A stretch of DNA of 64,000 nucleotides, taken from positions 125,200 through 189,199 of the forward strand of contig JAVZBY010000003.1 of NCBI GenBank assembly GCA_038874655.1, read 5' to 3'. This document shows, piece by piece, positions 17,884-61,988 of this stretch. Within the stretch, counting starts at the first letter, position 1; every line of letters starts with the position of its first letter. This stretch comes from Candidatus Woesearchaeota archaeon (GTDB lineage Archaea > Nanobdellota > Nanobdellia > Woesearchaeales > GW2011-AR15). The position numbers and the translations under genes were made by a program. A model generated the notes under the pieces. It searched no databases, was not told the DNA's origin, and was given only the letters and a program-made list of their open reading frames with translations.

Positions 17884-20800
17884 ATGAAAAAAAAGATGAT
17901 AAAAAAGAGGTTATATTTTTTCTTAATTCTTGTATCATTTTTTTTATTTTTCTTTATTAATACTATACAATTTTCAAACTCACAAAGTTTAAATTATGAG
18001 AAAATCGGCAGATCTTATTTTAATTCTCCAAATTGCTATATCTATGAAGATAACTCTTTAAAAGATGGCGGCTGCTTATGCTATGAAAATAAAATAATGG
18101 GAACTGGTAATGAAGAGGATGGTTTATACTCAACATGTAAATCTAGTAACATGGATATTACTCAAATAGAAACTTCTTCAAATGAATGTTCTAAAAATTG
18201 TGTTTCTGATCAATACTATATAAGACTTTGCGAATTTGATGGCAAAAACTTCAATTGTAAAATCTTAGAAAAATTAACAGATTTTCCTTCAATAAAAGAA
18301 ATAGAACCAATCCTTGATGAAAATGGAAATAAAAAATGCTCTACTGATTTTTATAGAAATCCTGGGGAAAATAATTGCTATAAATACTATTTAGACCCAG
18401 AGAAAGAATTATGCGAATTACAAGAAACTAGTGAATTAGAAAAGTGTAATTGTTTAGATGTTAATACTGTAAATTGTGGTTTTGATGAATTATTAAAATA
18501 TTGTTGCAAAAAAGAAGAATTCAAAAATGACCCTAGATGTAATTGTAATATATTAAGTATTGAAATCAAAGGTAATGAAATTACTTGTCAAGAAAGTTAT
18601 AAAAGGCCTAAAAAAAATTCATTAAACTGTGAAAAATTAACAAAAAAAGATAATTCATGCGTATATTTAGATGTAAATAATAAAGAGTGTTATGATTTTG
18701 AATTAAATAACCCTAATAAAAGAAATGGCGATTTAAATTGCTTATCTGATCAATTATACCAACTTTATAATGAAGAATGTAAAAATTGTGAAAGCAAATT
18801 TATATATGATGTTGAAGAACATAAATGTTATTATAAATCACCTGAAACATTTTGTACAGAAAAAGAAGTTTATATATGCAATTGTATAGATTTACTAAAA
18901 GAAAATGAAAAAACCTGTGATAATCCTTTTTATCAAATCTGCAATTTAGAATGTAAAAATAATGAGCAAAAAAGATGTACAAAAGGTTATTATAGAGATT
19001 CATTTAATTCTGATAAATGTTTTATTCAAAAATTAGAAAACAATATTTGCATAGAAACTCAAGTAGATCCATTAAATTGTTTAGGAATTGATGGTTCTAA
19101 TTCATGTGTTAATGATAAAATAAAACAAATGACTGACGATTGCAATAAAAATTGCTCTGGAATAACTTATTTAAGATCAAAACATAATTCTAATGATTGT
19201 TTTGTTAAATCTCCTGATACAGATTGTGAAAAAAAAGAAACTGATTTAGAAAATTGTTTAGGTATAATGGGATCTAATAATTGTGAAAGTGATCCTATTT
19301 ATAATAGGTATGGTAATTGTGAAAGACAAGATTCTGACAATGATGGCATAGATGATAAATTTGAAAAAAAAGAATGTTTAAACACAAAAAATAACGAGCC
19401 TGTAAATAATGATGGCTGTTCTTGTTCTCAAATTAATTGTGATGATAATAATCCCTGTACTGATGATTATTGCGAAAATGGTAGATGCATATACAAGTAT
19501 AACAATAACCCTTGTGGAGAATTTAGAAAATGTCCCTCCAGTCAATGTGAAAGCAAATATCCTTATGAAAGATGGATTGAATATCCAGAAAGTGGAAAAG
19601 ATTATTGCTCAGAAGGTAAATGCTTAACTTATAGCTGTGAAATAAAAAGCATAAAATACTCTAAATATTGTGATCCTGACGATGATGATGACAATGATCC
19701 AGATATAACTGATCCATATCCTGAAGATCCTTCTAGAAACACAGAATCAGAAAAAGAAAAACAAATAATTTGTGAAAAAAATGCCCCAAACTGTGAATTA
19801 AATCTTGGGATTTGTAAAGATTCTAAAAAACAATGTATAAATAATGAATGGCTAACTTGTGACAAAAACAATTATGGCGAAAATTATGTGCTTGAAGAAG
19901 ATAATAATCTTTGCGACGGATTAGATAATGATTGTGATGGCACAATTGATGAGAATTGTGAATGTATAAACAATGAAATAAAAGAATGTGGCATAAATAT
20001 TGGAATTTGTAAAAAAGGCATACAAAAATGTATTAATGGCAAATGGAGCACTTGTGAAAATGCTATATTTCCAAAAAATGAAACATGTAATAATTTAGAT
20101 GATGATTGTGATGGTTTAACTGATGAAGATATTTACAATTCTGGTGATTACACCTTAAAAGAAGAATGCTTCATAAACCTATGTAAAGGTGTAAAAAAAT
20201 GCAATTCTAATTGTGAATTATTTGAAGATAACGATAAAGATAATTATTGTACTACAATAGATAATTGCCCTGAAATTTCAAACACAGATCAGATAGATAG
20301 TGATGGTGATTTTATTGGTGATGCTTGTGATGTTTGTCCATTTGATCCTTTAAATGACATTGATAATGATGGTATTTGTAGTAATACAGATAATTGTCCA
20401 ACTCTTTATAACCAAAATCAACAAGATTCTGATAATGATAACATTGGTGATGCTTGTGATGTTTGTCCAAATGACCAATTAAATGATATTGATAACGATG
20501 GTATTTGCAGTAATACAGATAATTGTCCTTTAAAATACAATCCTGAACAAATGGATTGTGATAATAACGGTATTGGTGATATTTGTGATTTAAACTCTCT
20601 TTGTGTTATTGATAGTGATAATGACGGAATAAAAGATAATAAAGATAATTGTCCTTATATATCAAATTCAGAACAAACAGATTCTGATAAAGATAATATC
20701 GGTGATGCTTGTGATGTTTGTCCATTTGATTCTTTAAATGATATTGATAAAGATGGTGTTTGTGGGAACATTGATAATTGTCCAAACATATATAACCCCA

Positions 20801-22671
20801 ATCAACAAGATTCTGATAAAGATAATATCGGTGATGCTTGTGATGTTTGTCCATTTGATTCTTTAAATGATATTGATAATGATGGTATTTGTGGGAATAT
20901 TGATAATTGCCCTTATAGATTTAATCCTCAACAAAATGACTGCAATAAAAATGATATTGGTGATGCTTGCGATACTAATTCAGAATGCTCAATTGACTCT
21001 GATAAAGATGGAATTTTAGATGTTTACGATAATTGTCCCAATATATATAATCCCGAACAAAAAGATGATGATAAAGATGGAATTGGAAATGAATGCGATT
21101 TATTTAAAAATGATTTCTTTAATGATAAAGATAAAGACGGAATCTCTACTGAGATTGATAATTGTCCTTTTAATTATAATCCTGATCAAAAAGATTCAGA
21201 TAATGATAAAAAAGGAGATGCTTGCGATATTTGTCCTTATGACCCATTAAACGATATTGATAGTGATGGTATATGTCATAATATACTAAATAATATATCT
21301 CTTGACAATTGTCCTTTTAAATATAATCCTGAACAATTAGATTGTGATAAAAATGGAATTGGTGATGCTTGTGATTTAAACTCTAAATGTATAGGTGATA
21401 TAGATTTAGATAATATATTAGACACAAAAGATAATTGTCCTTTTAATTATAATCCTGATCAATTAGACCAAGATGGTGATGGTATAGGTGATATTTGTGA
21501 TATTTGTAAAAAAGATGCCTTTAATGATTTAGATAAAGATGGTGTTTGTGGAAATATCGATAATTGTCCAAATATATATAACCCAAATCAACAAGATTCT
21601 GATAATGATAACATTGGTGATGCTTGTGATATTTGCCCTTACGATCCATTCAATGATATTGACAAAGATTTAATATGTGGTAATTTAGATAATTGCTTAG
21701 AAACAAATAATCCTAAACAATTAGATTGCGATAAAAATGGAATTGGTGATGCTTGTGATTTAAACTCAAATTGCGTTAAAGATTATGATAATGACAACAT
21801 ACTAGATTATTATGATAATTGTCCTGAAAGTTATAATCCAAATCAATTAGACTCTGATAAAGATAATATTGGTGATGCTTGTGATGTTTGTCCATTTGAT
21901 CCTTTAAATGACATTGATAATGATGGTATTTGTAGTAATACAGATAATTGTCCAACTCTTTATAACCCAAATCAACAAGATTCTGATAATGATAATATTG
22001 GTGATATCTGTGATCTTTGCCCAAATGATGAAAATAATGATATTGATGAAGATACAATTTGTGGCAACTTAGATAATTGCCCTTTTATAAAAAATCCTGG
22101 TCAAGAGCTTTGTGATTCTATAAACACTCAACAAATTATATTTGACAACAAATTAAAAATAAGATTAGATAACCTTTCAAGTTTAACAAAAAAAGGTGTA
22201 TTCCTAAACATATCAAAAAATGAAGAGGAAAAATTAAAAAAATTAAAAGAAAACATAGAAATTGAAACAAAAGAATATTATATAGATAATAAAAAATTTA
22301 CCAAATATAAAATAACAATTGACTCAAAAAATTTAAATAATTTATATTACTATCAAAATATTCCAAAATGCTTAGCTGAGAAAGCAGAAAATCTATATTT
22401 TAATGGAAAGAATTATCGTATCATTGAAAATGATCCTCTAATTGCATGGCAATATTCTAACACTCTAGATAAAGTTGAAATTACCTATGACATTGAAGGA
22501 AGTATCTCTAAAGAATGTTTAGCACAATTAAAAGATTATATTTATTCTTCAACAATTAAAAATGAAAACAAAAAAAATATTTTATACATAATAATACCTT
22601 TAATTTTAATTCCTTTAATAATTTTCATAGTTATTCTATTAGAAAAAATGCAAAAAACAGATAATAACTAA
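17884..22671 (+). CDS. Giant Cys-rich cell-surface protein with many thrombospondin type-3 repeats and a C-terminal TM anchor
   Basis: Signal peptide; DNCP...NPxQxDSDxDxIGDACD repeats; CDGLDNDCDG metal-binding motifs; C-terminal ILYIIIPLILIPLIIFIVILL. Confidence 0.9.
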   Translation: MKKKMIKKRLYFFLILVSFFLFFFINTIQFSNSQSLNYEKIGRSYFNSPNCYIYEDNSLKDGGCLCYENKIMGTGNEEDGLYSTCKSSNMDITQIETSSNECSKNCVSDQYYIRLCEFDGKNFNCKILEKLTDFPSIKEIEPILDENGNKKCSTDFYRNPGENNCYKYYLDPEKELCELQETSELEKCNCLDVNTVNCGFDELLKYCCKKEEFKNDPRCNCNILSIEIKGNEITCQESYKRPKKNSLNCEKLTKKDNSCVYLDVNNKECYDFELNNPNKRNGDLNCLSDQLYQLYNEECKNCESKFIYDVEEHKCYYKSPETFCTEKEVYICNCIDLLKENEKTCDNPFYQICNLECKNNEQKRCTKGYYRDSFNSDKCFIQKLENNICIETQVDPLNCLGIDGSNSCVNDKIKQMTDDCNKNCSGITYLRSKHNSNDCFVKSPDTDCEKKETDLENCLGIMGSNNCESDPIYNRYGNCERQDSDNDGIDDKFEKKECLNTKNNEPVNNDGCSCSQINCDDNNPCTDDYCENGRCIYKYNNNPCGEFRKCPSSQCESKYPYERWIEYPESGKDYCSEGKCLTYSCEIKSIKYSKYCDPDDDDDNDPDITDPYPEDPSRNTESEKEKQIICEKNAPNCELNLGICKDSKKQCINNEWLTCDKNNYGENYVLEEDNNLCDGLDNDCDGTIDENCECINNEIKECGINIGICKKGIQKCINGKWSTCENAIFPKNETCNNLDDDCDGLTDEDIYNSGDYTLKEECFINLCKGVKKCNSNCELFEDNDKDNYCTTIDNCPEISNTDQIDSDGDFIGDACDVCPFDPLNDIDNDGICSNTDNCPTLYNQNQQDSDNDNIGDACDVCPNDQLNDIDNDGICSNTDNCPLKYNPEQMDCDNNGIGDICDLNSLCVIDSDNDGIKDNKDNCPYISNSEQTDSDKDNIGDACDVCPFDSLNDIDKDGVCGNIDNCPNIYNPNQQDSDKDNIGDACDVCPFDSLNDIDNDGICGNIDNCPYRFNPQQNDCNKNDIGDACDTNSECSIDSDKDGILDVYDNCPNIYNPEQKDDDKDGIGNECDLFKNDFFNDKDKDGISTEIDNCPFNYNPDQKDSDNDKKGDACDICPYDPLNDIDSDGICHNILNNISLDNCPFKYNPEQLDCDKNGIGDACDLNSKCIGDIDLDNILDTKDNCPFNYNPDQLDQDGDGIGDICDICKKDAFNDLDKDGVCGNIDNCPNIYNPNQQDSDNDNIGDACDICPYDPFNDIDKDLICGNLDNCLETNNPKQLDCDKNGIGDACDLNSNCVKDYDNDNILDYYDNCPESYNPNQLDSDKDNIGDACDVCPFDPLNDIDNDGICSNTDNCPTLYNPNQQDSDNDNIGDICDLCPNDENNDIDEDTICGNLDNCPFIKNPGQELCDSINTQQIIFDNKLKIRLDNLSSLTKKGVFLNISKNEEEKLKKLKENIEIETKEYYIDNKKFTKYKITIDSKNLNNLYYYQNIPKCLAEKAENLYFNGKNYRIIENDPLIAWQYSNTLDKVEITYDIEGSISKECLAQLKDYIYSSTIKNENKKNILYIIIPLILIPLIIFIVILLEKMQKTDNN
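20257..22110 (+). repeat. Intragenic thrombospondin type-3 tandem repeat tract (about 129-bp/43-aa units)
   Basis: Exact DNA copies at 20314-20413 = 21868-21967 and 20680-20750 = 20809-20879. Confidence 0.85.
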
Positions 22672-25899: not shown

Positions 25900-26982
25900 C
25901 TAAGGATTTACTTTAACCTCTACATTTACTCCTTTTTCTGTTTGAACAACTACCTTAGGTTTATCCTGATTATCATTTTTATTATTAGTCTCTTCTTTTA
26001 CTTCTTTTTTCTCATTTTGTTGCTTCTTCTTTTTTTTAATACTTTTTTGCTCTTTTTTATTTGAATTTATTTCTTTTTTCTTATTTTTACTATTTTTTTG
26101 TTTTGTTTCTTTTTTTACACTTTTTTGTGTTTTATTATCCTTTACTTTTGTTTCTTTTAATTTTTGTGTACCCTCTTTTTTTAATTGTTTTTCCAACTTA
26201 ACTAGTTCTTTTTCTACATCACTAAAGCTAGATTTTTTATTGCTTTTTTTAGCATTTGTTTTTTTAACTTTTGATTTTTTTGCTTCTTTTTTATTTGATT
26301 TTACTTTTTTCTTCTTTTGAGATTTTCCTGATTTTTTAACTTTTTTATCTGAAGATTCTGTTTTATGGTGTATAATTATTGGTTTTTCAACAACTTTAAC
26401 AACACTCTCTTTTACCTCACTCTCTTTTACATTAGTTTGTTCTTTAAGTTGATTCGCCTCTTTACTTTCTTCATCTTTTTTTGGTTCAGGTATCTTCAAT
26501 TCATCTGTAGAATCTAATAATTTTTTATCTTCTTTATAATAGTCCTTATATTTCATAATATCTTTTAAAACCATATCAACTAGATTATTATCTTTCCATC
26601 CTTTTGATTCTAAATTTTGCTTTATTTGTTCAGAACTATATCCTTTATTCATTGCCCATATAACATAGTTCATTATTTTATATAAATCAGGAGCCAACCT
26701 CTTTAAATATAATGTTTCTGTGTCATCTTCTAATTCTTGTATTTCTTGTTCAAATTTACTTAAATCTGTTGATTCTTCTGTTTCAAATCTTCTAATCTCA
26801 TCTAAATCCTTTTTTTCTTCTTCTGCTAATTTTTCTAATTGCATTAATTCTTCTTGCTCTTCAGTAGTCATTCTTTGTAATTTTTGCAGCTGAACTAAAA
26901 TTATAACAAGCAAGATTAAAAATAATATCACTAACATAAAGAAAATTTCAGGTAAAGGCATATTTACTCCAAATACTAACAT
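25900..26982 (-). CDS. Membrane-anchored coiled-coil protein with a Lys-rich tail
   Basis: N-terminal TM, acidic coiled coil, YV..AMNKGYSSEQIKQNLESKGW helical motif, then K-rich low-complexity sequence; GAGGTGA ribosome-binding site. Confidence 0.75.
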   Translation of the reverse strand: MLVFGVNMPLPEIFFMLVILFLILLVIILVQLQKLQRMTTEEQEELMQLEKLAEEEKKDLDEIRRFETEESTDLSKFEQEIQELEDDTETLYLKRLAPDLYKIMNYVIWAMNKGYSSEQIKQNLESKGWKDNNLVDMVLKDIMKYKDYYKEDKKLLDSTDELKIPEPKKDEESKEANQLKEQTNVKESEVKESVVKVVEKPIIIHHKTESSDKKVKKSGKSQKKKKVKSNKKEAKKSKVKKTNAKKSNKKSSFSDVEKELVKLEKQLKKEGTQKLKETKVKDNKTQKSVKKETKQKNSKNKKKEINSNKKEQKSIKKKKKQQNEKKEVKEETNNKNDNQDKPKVVVQTEKGVNVEVKVNP

Positions 26983-27067: not shown

Positions 27068-30000
27068 CTAAGATTCTAAATCAACACTAGATTCTGCTAC
27101 TTTATTAATGATCCTGAAACTACCTCCTTTGTATAGATAAGCATTTATCTTATAATTAATTCCTTCTCTTACACAATAGGGGTTTGATAGTAAAGGCTCA
27201 ATTACTATACCTTGAATATAAACACTTCTCATATAATCCACAATAACGCTTTTTCCGAATATAGTAGATGGATCATGTATATCTAACTCTATATCTGAAT
27301 AACCTTCATAATCTCTGTTATTTACTATATAATATAAATCATAACATACCATGTTTCCTTTATTGAATCTAGAATCTGGCATTGCTCTTATCTCAAATTC
27401 TGGAATCACAACTTCTAACTCAATATCTTTTTGAGCTAAAAGATCATTATTGTTTTTTATATATAATTTTAATATTGCTTTACTTGAAGTATAATCCTTT
27501 ACTAAAACAACAAAATTAATCTCTTTTTCTTCTCCAGCAGTAATTTTTTTGATAATTAGATTATTATTTTTTACATCTATTTTATTTGGCGCTTCTAAAG
27601 AAATAACTAAATCTTCTAACTCTCTATTTAGATTGTTTTTTAATTTTACTTTTACTAAAACAGAATCTAATACATTAACAACATTTTTAGTATTAATAGT
27701 TATTGTAAATAACTCTTCATTAAGTAGACAGTTTTCATCTACTTGTCCATTACAGTTATCGTCTATATTATTACATAATTCCATTCTTCCTGGATTTATA
27801 TTATAATCATTATCATTACAATCATTACTACCTGAACATGTGCTTAAAATTTTATAATAACCATCATTATCTAAATCTACACAAACAGGTTGTTGATTTT
27901 GTGTTGTTGGTTTATAACATAATTTTGTATTTGAATTGCATAATAATCCACTCTTACAAGAATCTCTTTTTTCATAACAATCTTCGCATGCACAACCCTC
28001 GCCTATTTCACATTCTCCGTTTGGTTGCCCTATACATCCTTTTTTGCCGCCATGATTTTCACATGTTGCATCACAAGTATTATCATTACATAAAACAGTT
28101 CCTTCATCACAATAATAAGTTCTATCTTCTACACACAAAGAAGTGAAATAATTACACTTTGCTCCTAAAACACAACCGTCTCTTAAATCATGACAATCTT
28201 TACAACCACATCCTTCTCCTAATTGACAGAAACCATCTTCAACAATGCAACCTTTAACACCTCCATGATTAGCACATGTTTCATTACAGGTATTATCATT
28301 ACATAAAGTTGTTCCAACAGGACAACCACATAAACCAAAAGAACAAATAGCTCCTTGAACACAACTATCTTGTTTGTTTCTACAATCTTCGCAAGCACAT
28401 CCTTCTCCTATTTCACATTTTCCGTTTCTATTTATACAACCTGCAAAACCACTATCTGTTTCTAGACAATTTCTACTACATGTTCCGTCTTTACATAATG
28501 CTGTTCCAGGCAAACATTGTTTAAATGCATCATTGCAATTACTACCATTCCAAACACAACCAAATTGTGTTAATGATGCCCTACAAGGATCAAAAACACA
28601 TGAAATCTCATTAGTATAGTTTGAACATTTCATATTACTTTTACAATTTTCACAATAATCCCCTAAATTACTTGTTGGGAATAAAGCATCAAAAATAGTG
28701 CTTGTATTTATCCAATAACCCCCACAATCAAATAAACATTTCTCTGCACTACAACCTTCTAAAAAAGGAGGTATTATTGTTTGTTTCCCACAATTTTCTG
28801 GCTTATCACATCCACTTGTACATAAAGGATTAGAATAACTAAATGGATTTGTTATTGGATTAATTTTACGCTGTGTTAAATATACTTTTCTCAAATTAAC
28901 TAAACCTTCAAAATTAACATTGAAATTCATTACTGAATCAGTTTTTATAACTAAACAATCTAAATCATTTTTAACTTTTGATAAGTACAATACTTCTTTA
29001 TTATTATCTCTTAATTGATAACTATCTTGGTTTAAATCAAAATTATTTAATTCTTTAACAAGCATAGATTTTTCTGAATTTATCCTTATAGTAATATTGT
29101 GTTGAATACTATCGTCTGAATAAGTACAAACAAAATAATTACAATTTGAATCCCATATATATACTCCATAACCCTGCAAAAACTCTGGTTCATCAATTAA
29201 ACCATCGCAATCATTATCAACACCATCATTTAATGTACTTTCAAAATTTTCTGTTTTTACACAAGGTAAAGAACATTTTTCATTAAGATAATCACATACT
29301 AATCCCTGTGCACAACTATCTTTTTTATTAGAGCAATCTACACATGCACAACCTTCTCCTTCTTCACATATGCCATTTCTTATATTACAACCCTTTGATG
29401 CTGTATCAGTTTCTTTACAATTTTCACTACATGTCCCCTCTTGGCATAGTGTTGTTCCTAAAGGACATTGACATAAGAAATTAGTATCACAAACAGCACC
29501 TAAAACACATCCATCTTGTTTTCCTAAACAATCTGAACATGCACACCCTTCTCCTTCTACACAATTTCCATCTGGATCACCAATACAACCCATAAAATCT
29601 GTATCTGTTTCTTTACAATCTGAACTACATGTTCCATCTTGACATAAACCTGTTCCTACTGGACAACCTTTTAATTCACAACTACATGTGTTTAAATTAC
29701 ATGTTTTACCTTCACCACAATCTTGATCATTACCACATTGTGCCCCACATTTATTCTTTACACACTTGGGTAAATCATATAAACAGTTACAATCTGCACA
29801 TCCTATTCTTTGTGAAACTTTTTTACTATTTTGTGAACACAAAAATTCATTGCAATTATTGCCAAAAACAGGTCGATTATTTATAACATCACATTCTTCT
29901 ACTGATTCTAGTTTTTCATTACCACATATATTAACATTTTCACCTACACAACTATTACAACTCATAACATCTGCATCTGTTATAGCACCATCACTATTAA

Positions 30001-31642
30001 TATCATAAATATTTAAAGACTCTGTATCTGTTTTTCCGATATTATTAAATATTGCTGTTAAATCTGCATCATCTACTACATTTGAACTTTCTCCTTCTGT
30101 ATTAACATTACATTTTAAACATATATTTTGACAAGTTTCATCTATATATCTTATCCAAACACCATACCTTGGTCTTCCTAAAATATTTGTTATCTCAACT
30201 TCTTTACAAACCTTTTTTACACCTTGTGAGCAATATGCAAAATTTTCTTCTCTACATTTACCTTGCTCATCTACACAAAGATGTGTATTATTAATACAAC
30301 ATGAAGAAGGATTATTACTCAATTGACCTATTTCTGAATATTGCATATATGCTGGATTTACAGAATTATAAGTATTAATTGAAACATAATAGTCAATTGG
30401 TATTTCCTTATTATCATCTCCACAACACAATCCTTGAATATCTTCTAACCCCTCAACTTCTTCATTGGGTTTAAAAGTATCTTTACCATAATAACATTGA
30501 TTTTCATTTTCACAATCAAACCATTTTGATTTAATAAAGTGATAAACATATTGTGGTGTCTCAGGTGTATTTGACATAGATACAAACTCTTTAATAATTA
30601 CTTTATCTGTACAATTCCCTTCATTTACATCCAAATCAAGCCACCCTCCTTGAATACCATTTCTTGAATAACAATATTCTATTTCATTATCACCATCTGC
30701 ATCAATTAAAGTGCCAACTGGATGTCCTTTTTTATTAATGTCAACACAATCTGTATTCCTGTAACTACAATTTATAATATTTGTATTTGAATTACATTCA
30801 TCCCAATTATATACTAAATTATTCTCATAAAAATAATAATAAGTATAATCATAAGGATTTTCATCTCTTCCAGTTTCAAAAACATAATAATCAAAATCAG
30901 GATTAATATTATCATTAACTTTTGGACAATAGAAGAAATTTTCATATCTTATTGGAACAATCACTTCTTCTGTAACATCATATGTATTTGTGTCTAATGC
31001 GGTTTTTATTTCATTTCTATTACCTTTAACTATAACCCTTAAAGGAGTATTAGAAACAATACTTTGTGTAATTGCTTCATTAGGAACTTGAATCTCTTCC
31101 CTAAATGCATATGCATTTCCAACATTATTATAAACTAAATCCTCATTATCCCAACTTTTATCAACTGTTATAGTATCTCCACAATATGTACAAGCTACTT
31201 CTAAAATAAATTTTTTTGAATTAGGACTATTATTCAAACAAATCTCTGAAACAGAAGCAGTTAAAGATGCTGGCGGATAATTACAAACATTATTATTACA
31301 TATGCCATAATAGCCACACTTTGTTCCTAATCCAGAACATGTGCCACAATTATTAGTTGGTGTTATTTGTACACCACATTGCACTTGAGATGCAGGTGGA
31401 CATTGAGGTGTACATGATGAACCCTCATTATATTGTCCACAACAACACGCTAAAACACCATTATCATCTCTACATCCATCAAAGCCAGGTTTACAGTTTG
31501 GATAAGTATATTGAATATCTCCCTGACAACAATATTGACTACATAATTTAGCATTAGAGGGAAATAAAAATATTATAAAAAAAATTAAATATATTATATA
31601 ATAAAAATTGTTAAACTTATAATTCTCTTTCATATACCCCAC
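27068..31642 (-). CDS. Giant secreted Cys-rich protein with a dockerin-like domain, CxxGTxLCxDGTC repeats, DNDCDG motifs and a C-terminal Ig/CARDB-like region
   Basis: Signal peptide; paired loops NVNTEGESSNVVDDADL / DINSDGAITDADV at about 29941-30112; five or more CPxGTxLC repeats; no C-terminal TM segment. Confidence 0.85.
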   Translation of the reverse strand: MGYMKENYKFNNFYYIIYLIFFIIFLFPSNAKLCSQYCCQGDIQYTYPNCKPGFDGCRDDNGVLACCCGQYNEGSSCTPQCPPASQVQCGVQITPTNNCGTCSGLGTKCGYYGICNNNVCNYPPASLTASVSEICLNNSPNSKKFILEVACTYCGDTITVDKSWDNEDLVYNNVGNAYAFREEIQVPNEAITQSIVSNTPLRVIVKGNRNEIKTALDTNTYDVTEEVIVPIRYENFFYCPKVNDNINPDFDYYVFETGRDENPYDYTYYYFYENNLVYNWDECNSNTNIINCSYRNTDCVDINKKGHPVGTLIDADGDNEIEYCYSRNGIQGGWLDLDVNEGNCTDKVIIKEFVSMSNTPETPQYVYHFIKSKWFDCENENQCYYGKDTFKPNEEVEGLEDIQGLCCGDDNKEIPIDYYVSINTYNSVNPAYMQYSEIGQLSNNPSSCCINNTHLCVDEQGKCREENFAYCSQGVKKVCKEVEITNILGRPRYGVWIRYIDETCQNICLKCNVNTEGESSNVVDDADLTAIFNNIGKTDTESLNIYDINSDGAITDADVMSCNSCVGENVNICGNEKLESVEECDVINNRPVFGNNCNEFLCSQNSKKVSQRIGCADCNCLYDLPKCVKNKCGAQCGNDQDCGEGKTCNLNTCSCELKGCPVGTGLCQDGTCSSDCKETDTDFMGCIGDPDGNCVEGEGCACSDCLGKQDGCVLGAVCDTNFLCQCPLGTTLCQEGTCSENCKETDTASKGCNIRNGICEEGEGCACVDCSNKKDSCAQGLVCDYLNEKCSLPCVKTENFESTLNDGVDNDCDGLIDEPEFLQGYGVYIWDSNCNYFVCTYSDDSIQHNITIRINSEKSMLVKELNNFDLNQDSYQLRDNNKEVLYLSKVKNDLDCLVIKTDSVMNFNVNFEGLVNLRKVYLTQRKINPITNPFSYSNPLCTSGCDKPENCGKQTIIPPFLEGCSAEKCLFDCGGYWINTSTIFDALFPTSNLGDYCENCKSNMKCSNYTNEISCVFDPCRASLTQFGCVWNGSNCNDAFKQCLPGTALCKDGTCSRNCLETDSGFAGCINRNGKCEIGEGCACEDCRNKQDSCVQGAICSFGLCGCPVGTTLCNDNTCNETCANHGGVKGCIVEDGFCQLGEGCGCKDCHDLRDGCVLGAKCNYFTSLCVEDRTYYCDEGTVLCNDNTCDATCENHGGKKGCIGQPNGECEIGEGCACEDCYEKRDSCKSGLLCNSNTKLCYKPTTQNQQPVCVDLDNDGYYKILSTCSGSNDCNDNDYNINPGRMELCNNIDDNCNGQVDENCLLNEELFTITINTKNVVNVLDSVLVKVKLKNNLNRELEDLVISLEAPNKIDVKNNNLIIKKITAGEEKEINFVVLVKDYTSSKAILKLYIKNNNDLLAQKDIELEVVIPEFEIRAMPDSRFNKGNMVCYDLYYIVNNRDYEGYSDIELDIHDPSTIFGKSVIVDYMRSVYIQGIVIEPLLSNPYCVREGINYKINAYLYKGGSFRIINKVAESSVDLES

Positions 31643-31763
31643 CTTCTAAAAGTATTATTTTATTTTTAAAACATTATTAATTAATTTTTAATAAAAGTAA
31701 TCTCATTTTTTACATATATAAACTTTTCGCTCCTAGATAAATTATATCCTAAAAATATCATTT

Positions 31764-32837
31764 CTAATTCACATTCTTTATTAATATCAAAGCACCTTTT
31801 TTTGTATCTGGTAAATCTTCAATGGAATATGCGTTAAAATTACAATCTAATAACCTTAAATTACTATCACCAAATAATTCATCAAAATTAATATTAGTTT
31901 CTGTATCATCATTAACATTTTTTGCTTTAAATGTCAATTTAGCTATACTTCCTGAACCAGAAGCACATTCATTACCTATAACTCCTAAACTAAATCTTCC
32001 CTCACTTGGACTTATCAATGGATAAGAAATACTGTTTATTTCTTTATGAGAATTATCTAAATTAACAACAAAAACAGAATCAAATAAACTATTTTCATTA
32101 TAAGATGACGATGTAATTATACCAGTCCTTTCAAGAGATATAAAATTAGGGTCATACTTTATAGTAATTTGTATAGATCTTAAATTATTAACACAATAAA
32201 GATTCAAATACAAATCAAACTCATTGTTCTCATTAACAATTACATCATATTTGCTGTAAATATTGCTTTGTTTTGATTCCAAACTAGCTTGATTTTTAGA
32301 AATTCTTATTCCATCTTTATCACTTTTAGTTATACAATGTCTATTAGTAGTTTCATTAATCTTTTCTGCAAAATTCCCTTTCACAAAAGTAGGCAAAATA
32401 CTATTATAGGTTTTTTTCACTTTTTTATTTCCGCCTAAATAATATTTATCAAAAATAATTAAGGTTATTTCATCATTGCTTAAATTAAGTGTATATTCAT
32501 ATCCCATTAATCGTGTTGGTAATTCAAATTCCCTATAATAATTATTATGCATTGATGAAGCAATAATAATTTCATTTTTTATATCATTAATCAAATTAAT
32601 AATCTCTTGATTTTCTTTTTCTTGGCTAATCTCAGAAATTCTATTTGTAATTAAATATATAAAACCAGTTATAACTAAAAAAACAATACCAAAAATTAAT
32701 ATAAATTCAAAGGATATCTGAGCTATTTTAGCTATTTTAAAGTATTTAAGCAAACCTTCTTTTGTTATAGTTTTATTAATTTTTTTCATTTTAAAAACAT
32801 CAATTTTCACAGAGACTTTAATCAAGTTTCTTGACAA
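31764..32837 (-). CDS. Type IV pilin-like protein with a C-terminal cohesin-like domain
   Basis: KIAQ-ISFEFILIFGIVFLVI class III signal; C-terminal EFDLYLNL...LRSIQITIKYDPNFI...SGSGSIAKLTFKAK...INF. True start may be 32789. Confidence 0.7.
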   Translation of the reverse strand: MSRNLIKVSVKIDVFKMKKINKTITKEGLLKYFKIAKIAQISFEFILIFGIVFLVITGFIYLITNRISEISQEKENQEIINLINDIKNEIIIASSMHNNYYREFELPTRLMGYEYTLNLSNDEITLIIFDKYYLGGNKKVKKTYNSILPTFVKGNFAEKINETTNRHCITKSDKDGIRISKNQASLESKQSNIYSKYDVIVNENNEFDLYLNLYCVNNLRSIQITIKYDPNFISLERTGIITSSSYNENSLFDSVFVVNLDNSHKEINSISYPLISPSEGRFSLGVIGNECASGSGSIAKLTFKAKNVNDDTETNINFDELFGDSNLRLLDCNFNAYSIEDLPDTKKGALILIKNVN

Positions 32838-33610
32838 CCATTTTTACAAATACCTTTTCCTTTAAAATTATCACTTTTACTTAATTTATTTAAAACAGAT
32901 GCTTCGTCATCATTATTAGTATCAATCAACCAACTATTTGTAATTTTACCTCTATTTCCTGCTGAATCATAACTATAAATTCCATAAACACTTATCTTTA
33001 TTATTTTATTAGTTTTCCCTTTCCATGAAGCAAAATTAGTTTTATCTGCTATTTCATAATTAAAAGTTCCATTTAATTCTAATGTCCATGGATCAATTTG
33101 CTTAATAAAATTTCCAAAAAAAGAAACATTTAATTTTTTCAATTCAATATTTAAGTAAGAAAAATTTTTTTCTAAATCACTTTTTAAATTAGTAAACAAA
33201 TATCTTTTGTCAATGTAATTCAATTGTGTTAAATTATAATCTCTATTATTAACAGTCAAATTACCATCATAAAAAACATCTGGAAATGCTGATAAGAAAG
33301 ATTTAATATAATTTTGATTAAACCCATTATCATAATAAAAATGTGATAAACCAATTATGACTTCTTTAGAACTAATATATAACATGTTTTCTAAATAATA
33401 ATTTTCAAAATCATTCACAAATGAATTTAAAACTTTTAACCTTGCTCTTGTAGCATCAAGATCTGAAACTTTTTCATATCTTTTTGAGTTTAAATCAATA
33501 GTTGCTAAAAATAAAAAAACAAATAAAATAGAAGTAATTGTAAAAAAAACAGACTTTTTATTATTTTTTAATCTAAATTTTTTTAATTTAATTAAGATTC
33601 TATTTTTCAT
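32822..33610 (-). CDS. Pilin-like (class III signal) protein
   Basis: KKS-VFFTITSILFVFLFL; part of an overlapping gene cluster. Confidence 0.65.
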   Translation of the reverse strand: MKNRILIKLKKFRLKNNKKSVFFTITSILFVFLFLATIDLNSKRYEKVSDLDATRARLKVLNSFVNDFENYYLENMLYISSKEVIIGLSHFYYDNGFNQNYIKSFLSAFPDVFYDGNLTVNNRDYNLTQLNYIDKRYLFTNLKSDLEKNFSYLNIELKKLNVSFFGNFIKQIDPWTLELNGTFNYEIADKTNFASWKGKTNKIIKISVYGIYSYDSAGNRGKITNSWLIDTNNDDEASVLNKLSKSDNFKGKGICKNGCQET

Positions 33611-34181
33611 TCCAAAAAAGCACCTCTACTAAATAAGGGCCAAATTTAATAAAACTACCATCATTTGGATTTTCATAATACCCAAAAACAATAGTTTGTC
33701 TATTAATTATTTGCTCAGCTTTTTGAAATTTATCACCTTTTGAAAAAATCTCTTCATTGTTTATTCTTATTTTAAGTCCATATCTATCATCAACTAAATT
33801 ATATGTGTCTATAAAATCTTTAATTAATAATTTTATTTGAGCTCTATTATTTTTATTATATAACTCACCAATAATGGTAATTAAAGTTTGATTAATATTT
33901 ACATTATTATGTATTGCTGTTAAATTATTAAAATTGCAATTTCCTGCATTACACAAATCTTCACCCTTAACATTAGTTATTAAATCATAAAAATTGTCTG
34001 CTATATTATCCATAGTTATAGCATTACTTTCCGCCCTATAACTTGAAAATAATAATAAATACCCCATAATCAATATAATTATCCCAAAAATTCCATCAAT
34101 TATGAAAAATTGTGCTTTTTTATATCTCATTTTGCATAACTTTTTACAAATATAATTATTTGCCATCTTTACTCTGCACAT
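33600..34181 (-). CDS. Pilin-like (class III signal) protein
   Basis: KKAQ-FFIIDGIFGIIILIM; true start is probably 34166 or 34130. Confidence 0.7.
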   Translation of the reverse strand: MCRVKMANNYICKKLCKMRYKKAQFFIIDGIFGIIILIMGYLLLFSSYRAESNAITMDNIADNFYDLITNVKGEDLCNAGNCNFNNLTAIHNNVNINQTLITIIGELYNKNNRAQIKLLIKDFIDTYNLVDDRYGLKIRINNEEIFSKGDKFQKAEQIINRQTIVFGYYENPNDGSFIKFGPYLVEVLFWNEK

Positions 34182-34723
34182 ATATAAACATTAAAAGTAT
34201 AAATATCCTTTTGATTATTATAATCATAAAGAACATTTCTCTTAATAAGTATTGATTCTTTCAACGAACATTTTGGATTAGCAACTATATTATTTAAATC
34301 AGAATCTCCACATAAAATCCTTTCTCCAATAGTTAAAAAATAAACATAATTATTATTATAATTAGGAAAAACTGCCCTGCTTTTTATTATCCTATTGTTT
34401 TTATCTTGTAGATATAAACAATAAGAAATCCTCTTAACAGAATTCGTTGTTAAATCTTTAAAAAAAAAGTCATATAAAACATTATTATCCTCATTAAAAA
34501 AAGCATCTAGCTTATTATTATCAATTTTAATTCCATCTAAAAAATCTTTTTCCTCATCATAAATTTCATTTAACTTATTAAACATTAACTCATATTGAAT
34601 ATCCAATTTTTTTTCAGATGTCAAAAAAAAAGCATTATTCAATCCATAAAAAAATAAGGATACTGCAAATATATATAAAATAAAAGTCATAACAAAATCC
34701 ATACTAATAATTTGAGATTTCAT
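34169..34723 (-). CDS. Pilin-like (class III signal) protein
   Basis: MKSQ-IISMDFVMTFILYIFAV. Confidence 0.7.
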   Translation of the reverse strand: MKSQIISMDFVMTFILYIFAVSLFFYGLNNAFFLTSEKKLDIQYELMFNKLNEIYDEEKDFLDGIKIDNNKLDAFFNEDNNVLYDFFFKDLTTNSVKRISYCLYLQDKNNRIIKSRAVFPNYNNNYVYFLTIGERILCGDSDLNNIVANPKCSLKESILIKRNVLYDYNNQKDIYTFNVYICAE

Positions 34724-34735
34724 TTTTTACAAATT

Positions 34736-35290
34736 TTAACTATATTCTTGTTTTGAGATATTAACACAAATCTTTTGTATTACATTATTATTTTGATATT
34801 TATAAATACAATTTGGGATTACATCCAAGTAAATACCTTTTAAACCTTCTCCATATATACTTTTTTTTAAACATTTACAATCATTATCAATACAAAGTTC
34901 ATCTGGATTTATATCGCAATTATCACCATACAATGGAACACTAGACTCATACATAACTTTATTTTCCCCTCCTGTTGTAATATATTTAAAAATCAAATAT
35001 GTTTCATTTCCACCTTTAACATTTAATATATACATATTAGTAATACCCGAAGGCATCTCAAAAGTTAAGGTTGTTCTAGATGAAACACCATAATAATAAA
35101 TTTTTCTTGCATTATTTATAATTAAATTAGAAATTTGATTTAGTTTATTATTAATTGCAAAATCATTGCTTTGGAAAACATAATTTCTAAAAACATAAAT
35201 TCCAGAAAGCAAAATAGCTAATGCAATAGCAATCATTAAAACATATTCCATTGCAAACTGAGATTTACCCCTTTTTTTAAAAATCTTCAT
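34736..35290 (-). CDS. Type IV pilin-like (class III signal) protein
   Basis: KRGKSQ-FAMEYVLMIAIALAIL, with Glu at +5. Confidence 0.75.
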   Translation of the reverse strand: MKIFKKRGKSQFAMEYVLMIAIALAILLSGIYVFRNYVFQSNDFAINNKLNQISNLIINNARKIYYYGVSSRTTLTFEMPSGITNMYILNVKGGNETYLIFKYITTGGENKVMYESSVPLYGDNCDINPDELCIDNDCKCLKKSIYGEGLKGIYLDVIPNCIYKYQNNNVIQKICVNISKQEYS

Positions 35291-35397
35291 AAAAAATAAT
35301 TAGGAATCTTTCTTTAAATAATTTTTGATAAATTTTATACAGAATTCATGATAAATTTCATATAGTATATAGCAAAAAATAAAAAAAAGAAAAAATA

Positions 35398-35487
35398 CGC
35401 AGCTGAGAGGATTTGAACCCCCGACCTACTGCTTAGGAGGCAGTCGCTCTTTTTGGCTTACTTGTATCCAAGCTGAGCTACAGCTGC
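35398..35487 (-). tRNA. tRNA-Arg(CCT) with a 15-nt D-loop intron (35451-35465)
   Basis: GCAGCTG/CAGCTGC acceptor stem, ACTGC-CTCCTAA-GCAGT anticodon arm; BHB-like TTGG-AT|A ... CCAA-AA|A. Confidence 0.92.
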
Positions 35488-35612
35488 ATACTAATTATAA
35501 ATAAATATAAAAAAATATAAAACAAAAAAAAAGAAAAAAAACTATTTTAAAAATATTGTTAATCTATATGATAAAAACATAAAATTAAAAAGAATAAAAA
35601 AATTTTTTTGAT

Positions 35613-38220: not shown

Positions 38221-38278
38221 AAATAGAAAATCTAAAATTATTGAATCATTAAAAACATATAAGAATAAGCTAGTATAT

Positions 38279-38400
38279 ACGGCAGTGGTCTAACGGCATG
38301 ATAGGACCCTCCCATAAAAAAAGTATAAAACATATAATAATAAATTATGTTAATAAATTGAAGAGAGGTCTTGATCCGGGTTCAATTCCCGGCTGCCGTA
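38279..38400 (+). tRNA. tRNA-Gly(CCC) with a 51-nt canonical 37/38 intron (38315-38365)
   Basis: ACGGCAG/CTGCCGT acceptor stem, GGACC-CTCCCA|A-GGTCT anticodon arm, CCGGG-TTCAATT-CCCGG T-arm. Confidence 0.88.
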
Positions 38401-38449
38401 TGAAAAGATTTATTAAAACTAAATCTAATATTTAAATAAAGGTGAAAAA

Positions 38450-61673: not shown

Positions 61674-61742
61674 ATAAAAAAATAACAAATAGGACTAAAT
61701 TTAAAAAAAATAACTTTTTTCTTTTCTATAATTTTATTTAAT

Positions 61743-61878
61743 GCGCAGGTAGTGAAGTGGTCAAACACGATAGACTCAAGAAATTTGAGTGTTGAGCTTT
61801 ATGCTATGAAAAACACTTGCCCATTATGAGGAATCTATTCCCTTAGTGGGTTCGCAGGTTCGAATCCTGCCCTGCGCA
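61743..61878 (+). tRNA. tRNA-Leu(CAA) with a 52-nt canonical 37/38 intron (61781-61832)
   Basis: GCGCAGG/CCTGCGC acceptor stem, ATAGA-CTCAAG|A-TCTAT anticodon arm; BHB CTCA-AG|A ... TGAG-GA|A; long variable arm. Confidence 0.93.
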
Positions 61879-61988
61879 GTTTTTATTTTGATTTAAAAAA
61901 TTTATTCTATCTAATTAAAAAGAACATTTATATAATAAGAAAGATTTGTTATAGTTATAATTGTTATAAAATAGTGTGAGGTGAGCAT

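Follow-up and report, generated by a model that had tools for sequence, protein, structure and literature searches.

A cohesin-bearing pilin-like protein encoded beside a dockerin-bearing secreted giant: a candidate pilus adaptor in an archaeon

Genes and domains of the locus

The window, i.e., the whole stretch of 64,000 nucleotides analysed here, belongs to a genome of 1.26 Mb (17 contigs, 97% complete). On its minus strand, five packed open reading frames run from 35290 to 31764 and are followed, after a gap of 121 bp, by a reading frame of 1524 amino acids and then by one of 360 amino acids. The preliminary description of this DNA had reported five co-oriented, tightly packed genes with class III-like N-termini. 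This is borne out, as the reading frames overlap or abut and each begins with a leader and a hydrophobic stretch; the motifs that it quoted were also recovered where it had placed them.

Gene 1 (34736..35290) and gene 2 (34169..34723) each encode a pilin-like protein of 184 amino acids, gene 3 (33600..34181) one of 193 amino acids, whose paralogue in the same genome measures 1264 amino acids, and gene 4 (32822..33610) one of 262 amino acids. Gene 5 (31764..32837, with a likely start at the ATG at 32789 that gives 341 amino acids) encodes a predicted fusion of a pilin domain (32289..32720) with a C-terminal cohesin domain (31767..32288). Class III signal peptides consist of a basic leader, a small residue at position −1, and a hydrophobic stretch. 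Each cassette protein has a class III-type basic leader ending in Ser or Ala and one hydrophobic stretch, and no further transmembrane segment was found in any of the five. The leader motif is kept in 9 of 9 related loci compared. With the Pfam model Class_IIIsignal (PF04021), genes 1 and 5 stay below the cut-off (15.9 versus 23.7; E 0.013 for gene 1), and genes 2 to 4 gave no match; hence, the class III or "pilin" label rests on motif, conservation, and context. NCBIfam gave nothing above cut-off for the cassette proteins or the giant. Among 24 family members of the gene 5 pilin domain, 10 match PF04021 at E ≤ 0.05 and 19 contain DUF7266; a profile search with this domain found no match in the PDB.

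The N-terminal part of gene 5 can be aligned over its entire length with class III homologues of about 130 amino acids that occur on their own and stop where the cohesin starts. Hence, the cohesin was added to a complete pilin-like domain. Gene 5 fits the modular-pilin layout, in which a full pilin-like domain is followed by a non-pilus functional module. A homologue with 54% identity is labelled Candidatus Woesearchaeota.

The 1524-amino acid protein (27068..31642, minus strand, likely start at the ATG at 31633) is a predicted secreted, Cys-rich giant. Its only hydrophobic segment is at the N-terminus, as in 11 related giants checked. The claim that it lacks a C-terminal membrane anchor therefore holds, unlike for the TSP3-repeat protein of 1595 amino acids encoded on the plus strand (17884-22671), which has a C-terminal hydrophobic segment as a membrane anchor. 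Two related loci (L041 and L093) likewise have a TSP3-like Cys-rich gene, beyond a tRNA-synthetase gene. The giant contains a Cys-flanked, dockerin-like duplicated Ca-loop/helix (29921..30133) and a putative metal-binding motif of the MopE type (27734..27823; PF11617, E 7e-11), which is one of two matched stretches. Its C-terminal region of about 215 amino acids (27071..27715) belongs to no Pfam family at cut-off and shows good conservation in all 9 orthologues that were aligned. The profile of this region matched nowhere else in the genome, which rules out a shared-tail route for this protein. Pfam detected no ligand-binding family in the window's giant; the term adhesin is therefore inferred from its relatives.

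The Lys-rich protein of 360 amino acids (25900..26982, minus strand), predicted to be anchored at its N-terminus, follows the giant in relatives as well. One genome (G715) has two genes for Lys-rich proteins of this type, one after the pilin-cohesin gene and one after a relocated giant. Just upstream of the cassette lies a tRNA-Arg(CCT)-like gene (35397-35488, minus strand), which was missed by ARAGORN at default settings and matches the Rfam tRNA model from the D-arm on only (28 bits, cut-off 29). About 16–18 extra bases in its D-arm form a hairpin of their own and are likely a non-canonical intron. With introns allowed, ARAGORN found intron-containing genes for tRNA-Gly (38278-38401) and tRNA-Leu (61742-61879).

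Assignment of the cohesin and the dockerin

The proposal of a cohesin at the end of gene 5 is now on firmer ground. PF00963 matches residues 206-333 with E 3.2e-9 and 37.6 bits, the cut-off being 24.1. When a cohesin-domain profile of 17 rows was compared with the PDB, the first matches were ScaB (3l8q, E 2.4e-8) and SdbA (2bm3, E 2e-4), so that type II anchoring cohesins are nearest; the domain contains two conserved cysteines. Single-sequence PDB searches found no cohesin with the gene 5 domain and weak dockerin/EF-hand matches only with the window's dockerin; therefore, profiles were needed. A profile of the whole gene 5 protein also recruits multi-cohesin scaffoldin-like proteins from a representative library. 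Among its predicted-structure neighbours (predicted versus predicted, pLDDT 0.69), 8 of 10 rows are cohesin-containing clusters; two short cohesin neighbours have TM values of 0.72 and 0.79 by target, and only one row reaches the naming threshold. As judged by the Pfam score, the PDB profile ranking, and the neighbours of the predicted model, which agree, the C-terminal domain of gene 5 is a cohesin with a beta-sandwich fold. A generic Ig fold is ruled out on the same grounds.

For the proposed dockerin, the family assignment stood, and the copy in the window itself fell short. The excised 71 amino acids match Dockerin_1 (PF00404) with E 4e-4 and 21 bits, under the cut-off of 22.9, and the whole 1524-amino acid giant as query gave no Dockerin_1 match. 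All 15 aligned family segments match PF00404 (6 of them above cut-off), and Dockerin_1 is the best Pfam match for 13 of the 15. When the family profile was compared with the PDB, dockerin-bearing chains ranked at the top (best E 1.4e-8), and the first EF-hand protein followed at E 1.6e-4. Most orthologues have two canonical Ca-loop/helix repeats with Asp or Asn at loop positions 1, 3, 5, 9, and 12. In the window's copy, this holds for loop 2, whereas loop 1 is degenerate, with Asn at position 1 and a four-residue insertion as in L042; the helices are tethered by Cys. An Atlas feature search with residues 60-600 of the giant pointed to Dockerin_1 clusters at 0.75-0.77, which is a lead only. Going by these profiles, the loops of the giant are a dockerin-type repeat, degenerate in this genome, rather than lone EF-hands. 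Isolated EF-hands are ruled out, as the family profile ranks PDB dockerins above EF-hand proteins.

Pfam profile searches of the 1.26-Mb genome returned one cohesin match and one dockerin match, 1.9 kb apart, and a genome-wide search with custom HMMs gave no further cohesin or dockerin beyond gene 5 and the giant. With 1204 open reading frames of at least 100 amino acids, adjacency of a single cohesin and a single dockerin by chance is expected in about 2 of 1200 cases by rough arithmetic. As the only cohesin and the only dockerin of the genome adjoin, their pairing appears to be more than chance. Complex predictions of cohesin, dockerin, and Ca gave values of 0.60, 0.48, and 0.01 in separate runs and 0.40 in a control with a replaced cohesin, and thus speak neither for nor against binding.

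Relatives of the fusion and its partner proteins

Of the family's 20 genomes, 17 encode the pilin-cohesin fusion, which went undetected in G728, G731, and G733 (84, 89, and 94% complete). When the cohesin profile was run against 401 genomes of the order, strong matches came from 8 genomes of the same family and from 2 of family f19; 2 more matches were weak, both in long proteins. We examined 24 distinct loci (L006 equals L043 and was counted once), which come from two families and metagenome contigs and are not independent. A dockerin protein is encoded at most two genes downstream of the pilin-cohesin gene in 14 of the 24 (window, L003, L004, L008, L039-L043, L088, L091, L094, L095, L176) and four genes downstream in L097. 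Contig ends cut off three loci (L005, L089, L096), and in six (L007, L090, L092, L093, L098, L099), no dockerin gene is visible on the downstream side. For five of these six, the genomes were searched: a giant homologue with a dockerin is found elsewhere in G715, G727, G729, and G725, and other dockerin proteins are present in G724. L097 also encodes a secreted Cys-rich protein of 1311 amino acids with several Hint domains (L097:7504-11439), two genes after the pilin-cohesin.

The downstream partners fall into three types. One of them, the f19 type, comprises L043 and L176, to which L008 was added by eye; these partners have only the dockerin in common with the window's giant. The L095 partner additionally shares some 100 residues after the dockerin. 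The giant's conserved C-terminal region is missing from the L043 and L095 partners. As the three types share little else, the dockerin is the constant element. The loci are kin and hence represent about three events, not fourteen. The co-occurrence that the preliminary description had suggested looking for is seen among relatives and extends to partner proteins that are unrelated.

At the level of the order (401 genomes), dockerin matches occur in 114 genomes, four of which are flagged as unpublished and bear on nothing else stated here (G647, G610, G700, G583), cohesin matches in 41, and both in 33. Dockerins are thus present in 33 of 41 cohesin-positive genomes versus 81 of 360 others, with kin among these that are not independent. 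Given 114 dockerin versus 41 cohesin genomes, many dockerins have no detected partner (81 of the 114 genomes gave no cohesin match), although Pfam misses diverged cohesins, such as those of f19 and those in G172 and G522. Both f19 genomes have 8 dockerin matches each beside the pilin-cohesin.

Adjoining dockerin and cohesin genes were found in other families in 10 of 28 loci. L108, L109, L110, L111, and L113 encode a secreted protein ending in a dockerin, and the next gene starts with a cohesin; in L100, L112, L115, L116, and L117, cohesin and dockerin genes are also neighbours. This looks like a general way to join two large surface proteins. A different protein (L118:10803-12686) combines a class III-like leader with an internal cohesin (Pfam, 41.5 bits), 5 kb from a multi-dockerin gene, and is possibly an independent pilin-cohesin fusion.

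Pilins of this kind without a cohesin are widespread in the class: the gene 5 profile matches 79 of the 401 genomes, and in 6 of these, the match spans the whole fusion. For comparison, cohesin-less loci were selected, 8 for long reading frames and 7 for long contigs. Of the 8 long cohesin-less pilins, the 7 that were scanned carry further domains: Big_5, a MopE motif, LamG with DUF2341 (in two), LamG with DUF4215, DUF1554, and Big_13, the DUF1554 and Big_13 matches being below cut-off. LamG is also present in four dockerin giants (L003, L040, L042, L095) and MopE motifs in others. As LamG and MopE recur in both, similar cargo is part of the pilin itself in some lineages, whereas with a cohesin at the end of the pilin, it resides on a dockerin protein of its own. 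In L091 (6085-8265), the pilin-cohesin is extended by DUF4215 repeats and LamG, and a dockerin giant is still encoded downstream; judged by its domains, this pilin is a predicted socket and direct cargo carrier in one. No dockerin match was found at the 15 cohesin-less cassette loci, which is a weak control: each locus amounts to about 1–2% of its genome, family loci had served to build the HMM, and long reading frames had been the reason for choosing 8 of the loci.

Known systems and possible roles

TcpB and TcpF of Vibrio cholerae reportedly are a minor-pilin adaptor and its secreted protein, of the same class as CofB and CofJ. In CFA/III of ETEC, the minor pilin CofB holds the secreted CofJ, which bridges to the host, according to the accessible part of the report (PMC6048534). 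The locus in the window is similar in that a candidate minor pilin, extended by a module at its C-terminus, shares one operon with a secreted non-pilin protein, for which capture and display are expected. CofB, however, belongs to a bacterial type IVb pilus and grips an N-terminal peptide through an H-type lectin domain, whereas here a cohesin and an internal dockerin would form the link in an archaeon, and the partner is a Cys-rich protein of 1.5–2 kaa. In Streptococcus sanguinis, a complete pilin likewise bears an added C-terminal module, vWA in PilB and a lectin in PilC (10.1101/2021.01.27.428410, accessible sections). The cohesin-less relatives carry LamG/Ig cargo in exactly this manner, whereas the module on gene 5 would be a socket and not an adhesin.

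A pilin combined with IPR002105, which we take to be the dockerin repeat, would have the reverse polarity. The accessible part of the supplement PMC8179133 lists 3 proteins with this combination, without discussion, and for the terms searched, the architecture table of the PilB paper in it has no cohesin entry. The cohesin profile and the duplicated Ca-loop/helix resemble SdbA/ScaB and the dockerins of cellulosomes (PMC12484212, in part; 2bm3, 3l8q, 4fl4), where one cohesin likewise ties a large secreted protein to the cell. Unlike in SdbA/ScaB, the single cohesin is located on a pilin domain and not on a wall-anchoring module, the system is disulfide-rich, and the window's dockerin has the loop insertion. 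A cellulosome is ruled out, as there is one cohesin and one dockerin, and neither a multi-cohesin scaffoldin nor a catalytic domain was detected. Also comparable are non-cellulosomal archaeal pairs, in Archaeoglobus fulgidus (PMC12484212) and in ANME/SRB (PMC10553843), which are surface modules proposed for adhesion; a location on a pilin is not reported for them in the accessible parts of these papers.

The archaeal type IV filament system 1 (Epd-type) similarly combines five or more class III minor pilins with large DUF2341 adhesins, and most Nanobdellati genomes are said to carry its pilins, scattered from the ATPase (PMC4858521 and PMC13705601, both in part). DUF2341 is present in the cargo of two homologous cohesin-less pilins. 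The main text and supplements searched of these two surveys contain no cohesin or dockerin. A preprint on giant genes in Omnitrophota reports dockerin-rich giants after secretion/pilin loci and, in its accessible part, describes no pilin-cohesin. Our literature search, with subscription papers mostly outside its scope, found no description of a pilin-borne cohesin. Hence, the combination of a pilin-cohesin with a dockerin giant is apparently unpublished.

That the gene 5 cohesin and the dockerin of the giant bind each other is, taking the readings below together, highly likely. We further consider it probable, with more reserve, that gene 5 is a pilin adaptor, which would dock the dockerin-bearing giant onto a type IV pilus. 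A prepilin peptidase, of which the genome encodes one (A24) as well as three ATPase-TadC loci for assembly, would process the five cassette proteins, which would then form a minor-pilin complex, probably at the tip. The giant would be exported, released by signal peptidase, and bound by the gene 5 cohesin through its Ca-loaded dockerin, so that a disulfide-rich adhesin for a host cell or surface may be displayed. The cohesin-dockerin link would replace the direct fusion of pilin and cargo in other families. Against this proposal stand the window's dockerin under the cut-off, the many orphan dockerins, relocated giants that leave the pilins, assembly genes distant from the cassette, a pilin domain without a PDB match, and a giant without a recognised ligand-binding domain. 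It is conceivable, if rather doubtful, that the pilus tip is a one-socket scaffoldin, into which any dockerin-tagged protein could be plugged, with host-binding adhesins swapped as free-standing genes without re-fusing the pilin. Given three partner types and the 8 dockerin matches per f19 genome, several cargoes could compete for one socket.

The cohesin and dockerin might also bind each other without a pilus, if the five proteins form a short membrane complex in which the pilin domain is a mere anchor, like in SdbA. We regard this as unlikely, although the surroundings of the cassette in the window are free of genes for an ATPase, TadC, or a major pilin, and the three ATPase-TadC loci and the one A24 prepilin peptidase of the genome are all unlinked to it. 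The type II cell-anchoring relatives of the cohesin would also suit a membrane complex, as would the class III-like proteins of the genome, which number in the dozens and vary widely in size, and the leader of the window's gene 5, which has Ile at position −2 versus Lys or Arg in nine orthologues. Homologous cassettes in other families (L045, L055, L057), however, adjoin ATPase/TadC-like genes and a likely major pilin (judged from ORF sequence), and DPANN pilin genes are scattered as a rule (PMC13705601, accessible part). The same genome has a paralogous five-gene cassette (L160, G000:C1:260877-267367) with a plain 132-amino acid version of pilin 5 and the 1264-amino acid version of pilin 3, located 6.5 kb from an ATPase-TadC locus.

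Still less probable is that the two modules are not cognate, the dockerin being a Ca-stabilised structural module or binding the cohesin of another cell, and the cohesin a beta-sandwich adhesion or spacer domain. The 81 dockerin-positive genomes without a cohesin match would agree with this (bearing in mind the diverged cohesins that Pfam misses), as would the degenerate loop 1 and Cys-tethered helices of the window's dockerin and the expression of cohesin/dockerin proteins by both syntrophic archaea and bacteria, proposed for partner sensing (PMC10553843, in part). In all three partner architectures, the gene right after the pilin-cohesin nevertheless retains a dockerin, dockerins are enriched in cohesin-positive genomes (kin among them not being independent), and neighbouring dockerin and cohesin genes recur in other families. 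We consider it very unlikely that the giant is held mainly by its C-terminal region and the 360-amino acid membrane protein, with the dockerin-cohesin contact as a secondary tie to the pilus base. Conservation of the last 215 or so residues speaks for such anchoring, as does the short, nearly invariant N-terminus of the 360-amino acid protein, whose gene moves along with the giant (in 3 loci, a relocated giant keeps this downstream gene and not the pilins). Only about 11 residues of that protein precede its membrane segment, however; the L043 and L095 partners do without the C-terminal region, and in G732, the giant is split and its dockerin half has no such region.

Little is known of the way in which DPANN archaea locate their hosts and stay attached to them, and partners have been assigned to few of their surface proteins. 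The locus singles out a pair of small domains that are accessible to in vitro binding assays without the need to culture the organism. If they bind, a cellulosome connector would be used on a type IV filament, a use that we have not found described, and some of the non-cellulosomal dockerins of the order would be given a role. Designer complexes would then also gain a divergent cohesin-dockerin pair that contains disulfides.
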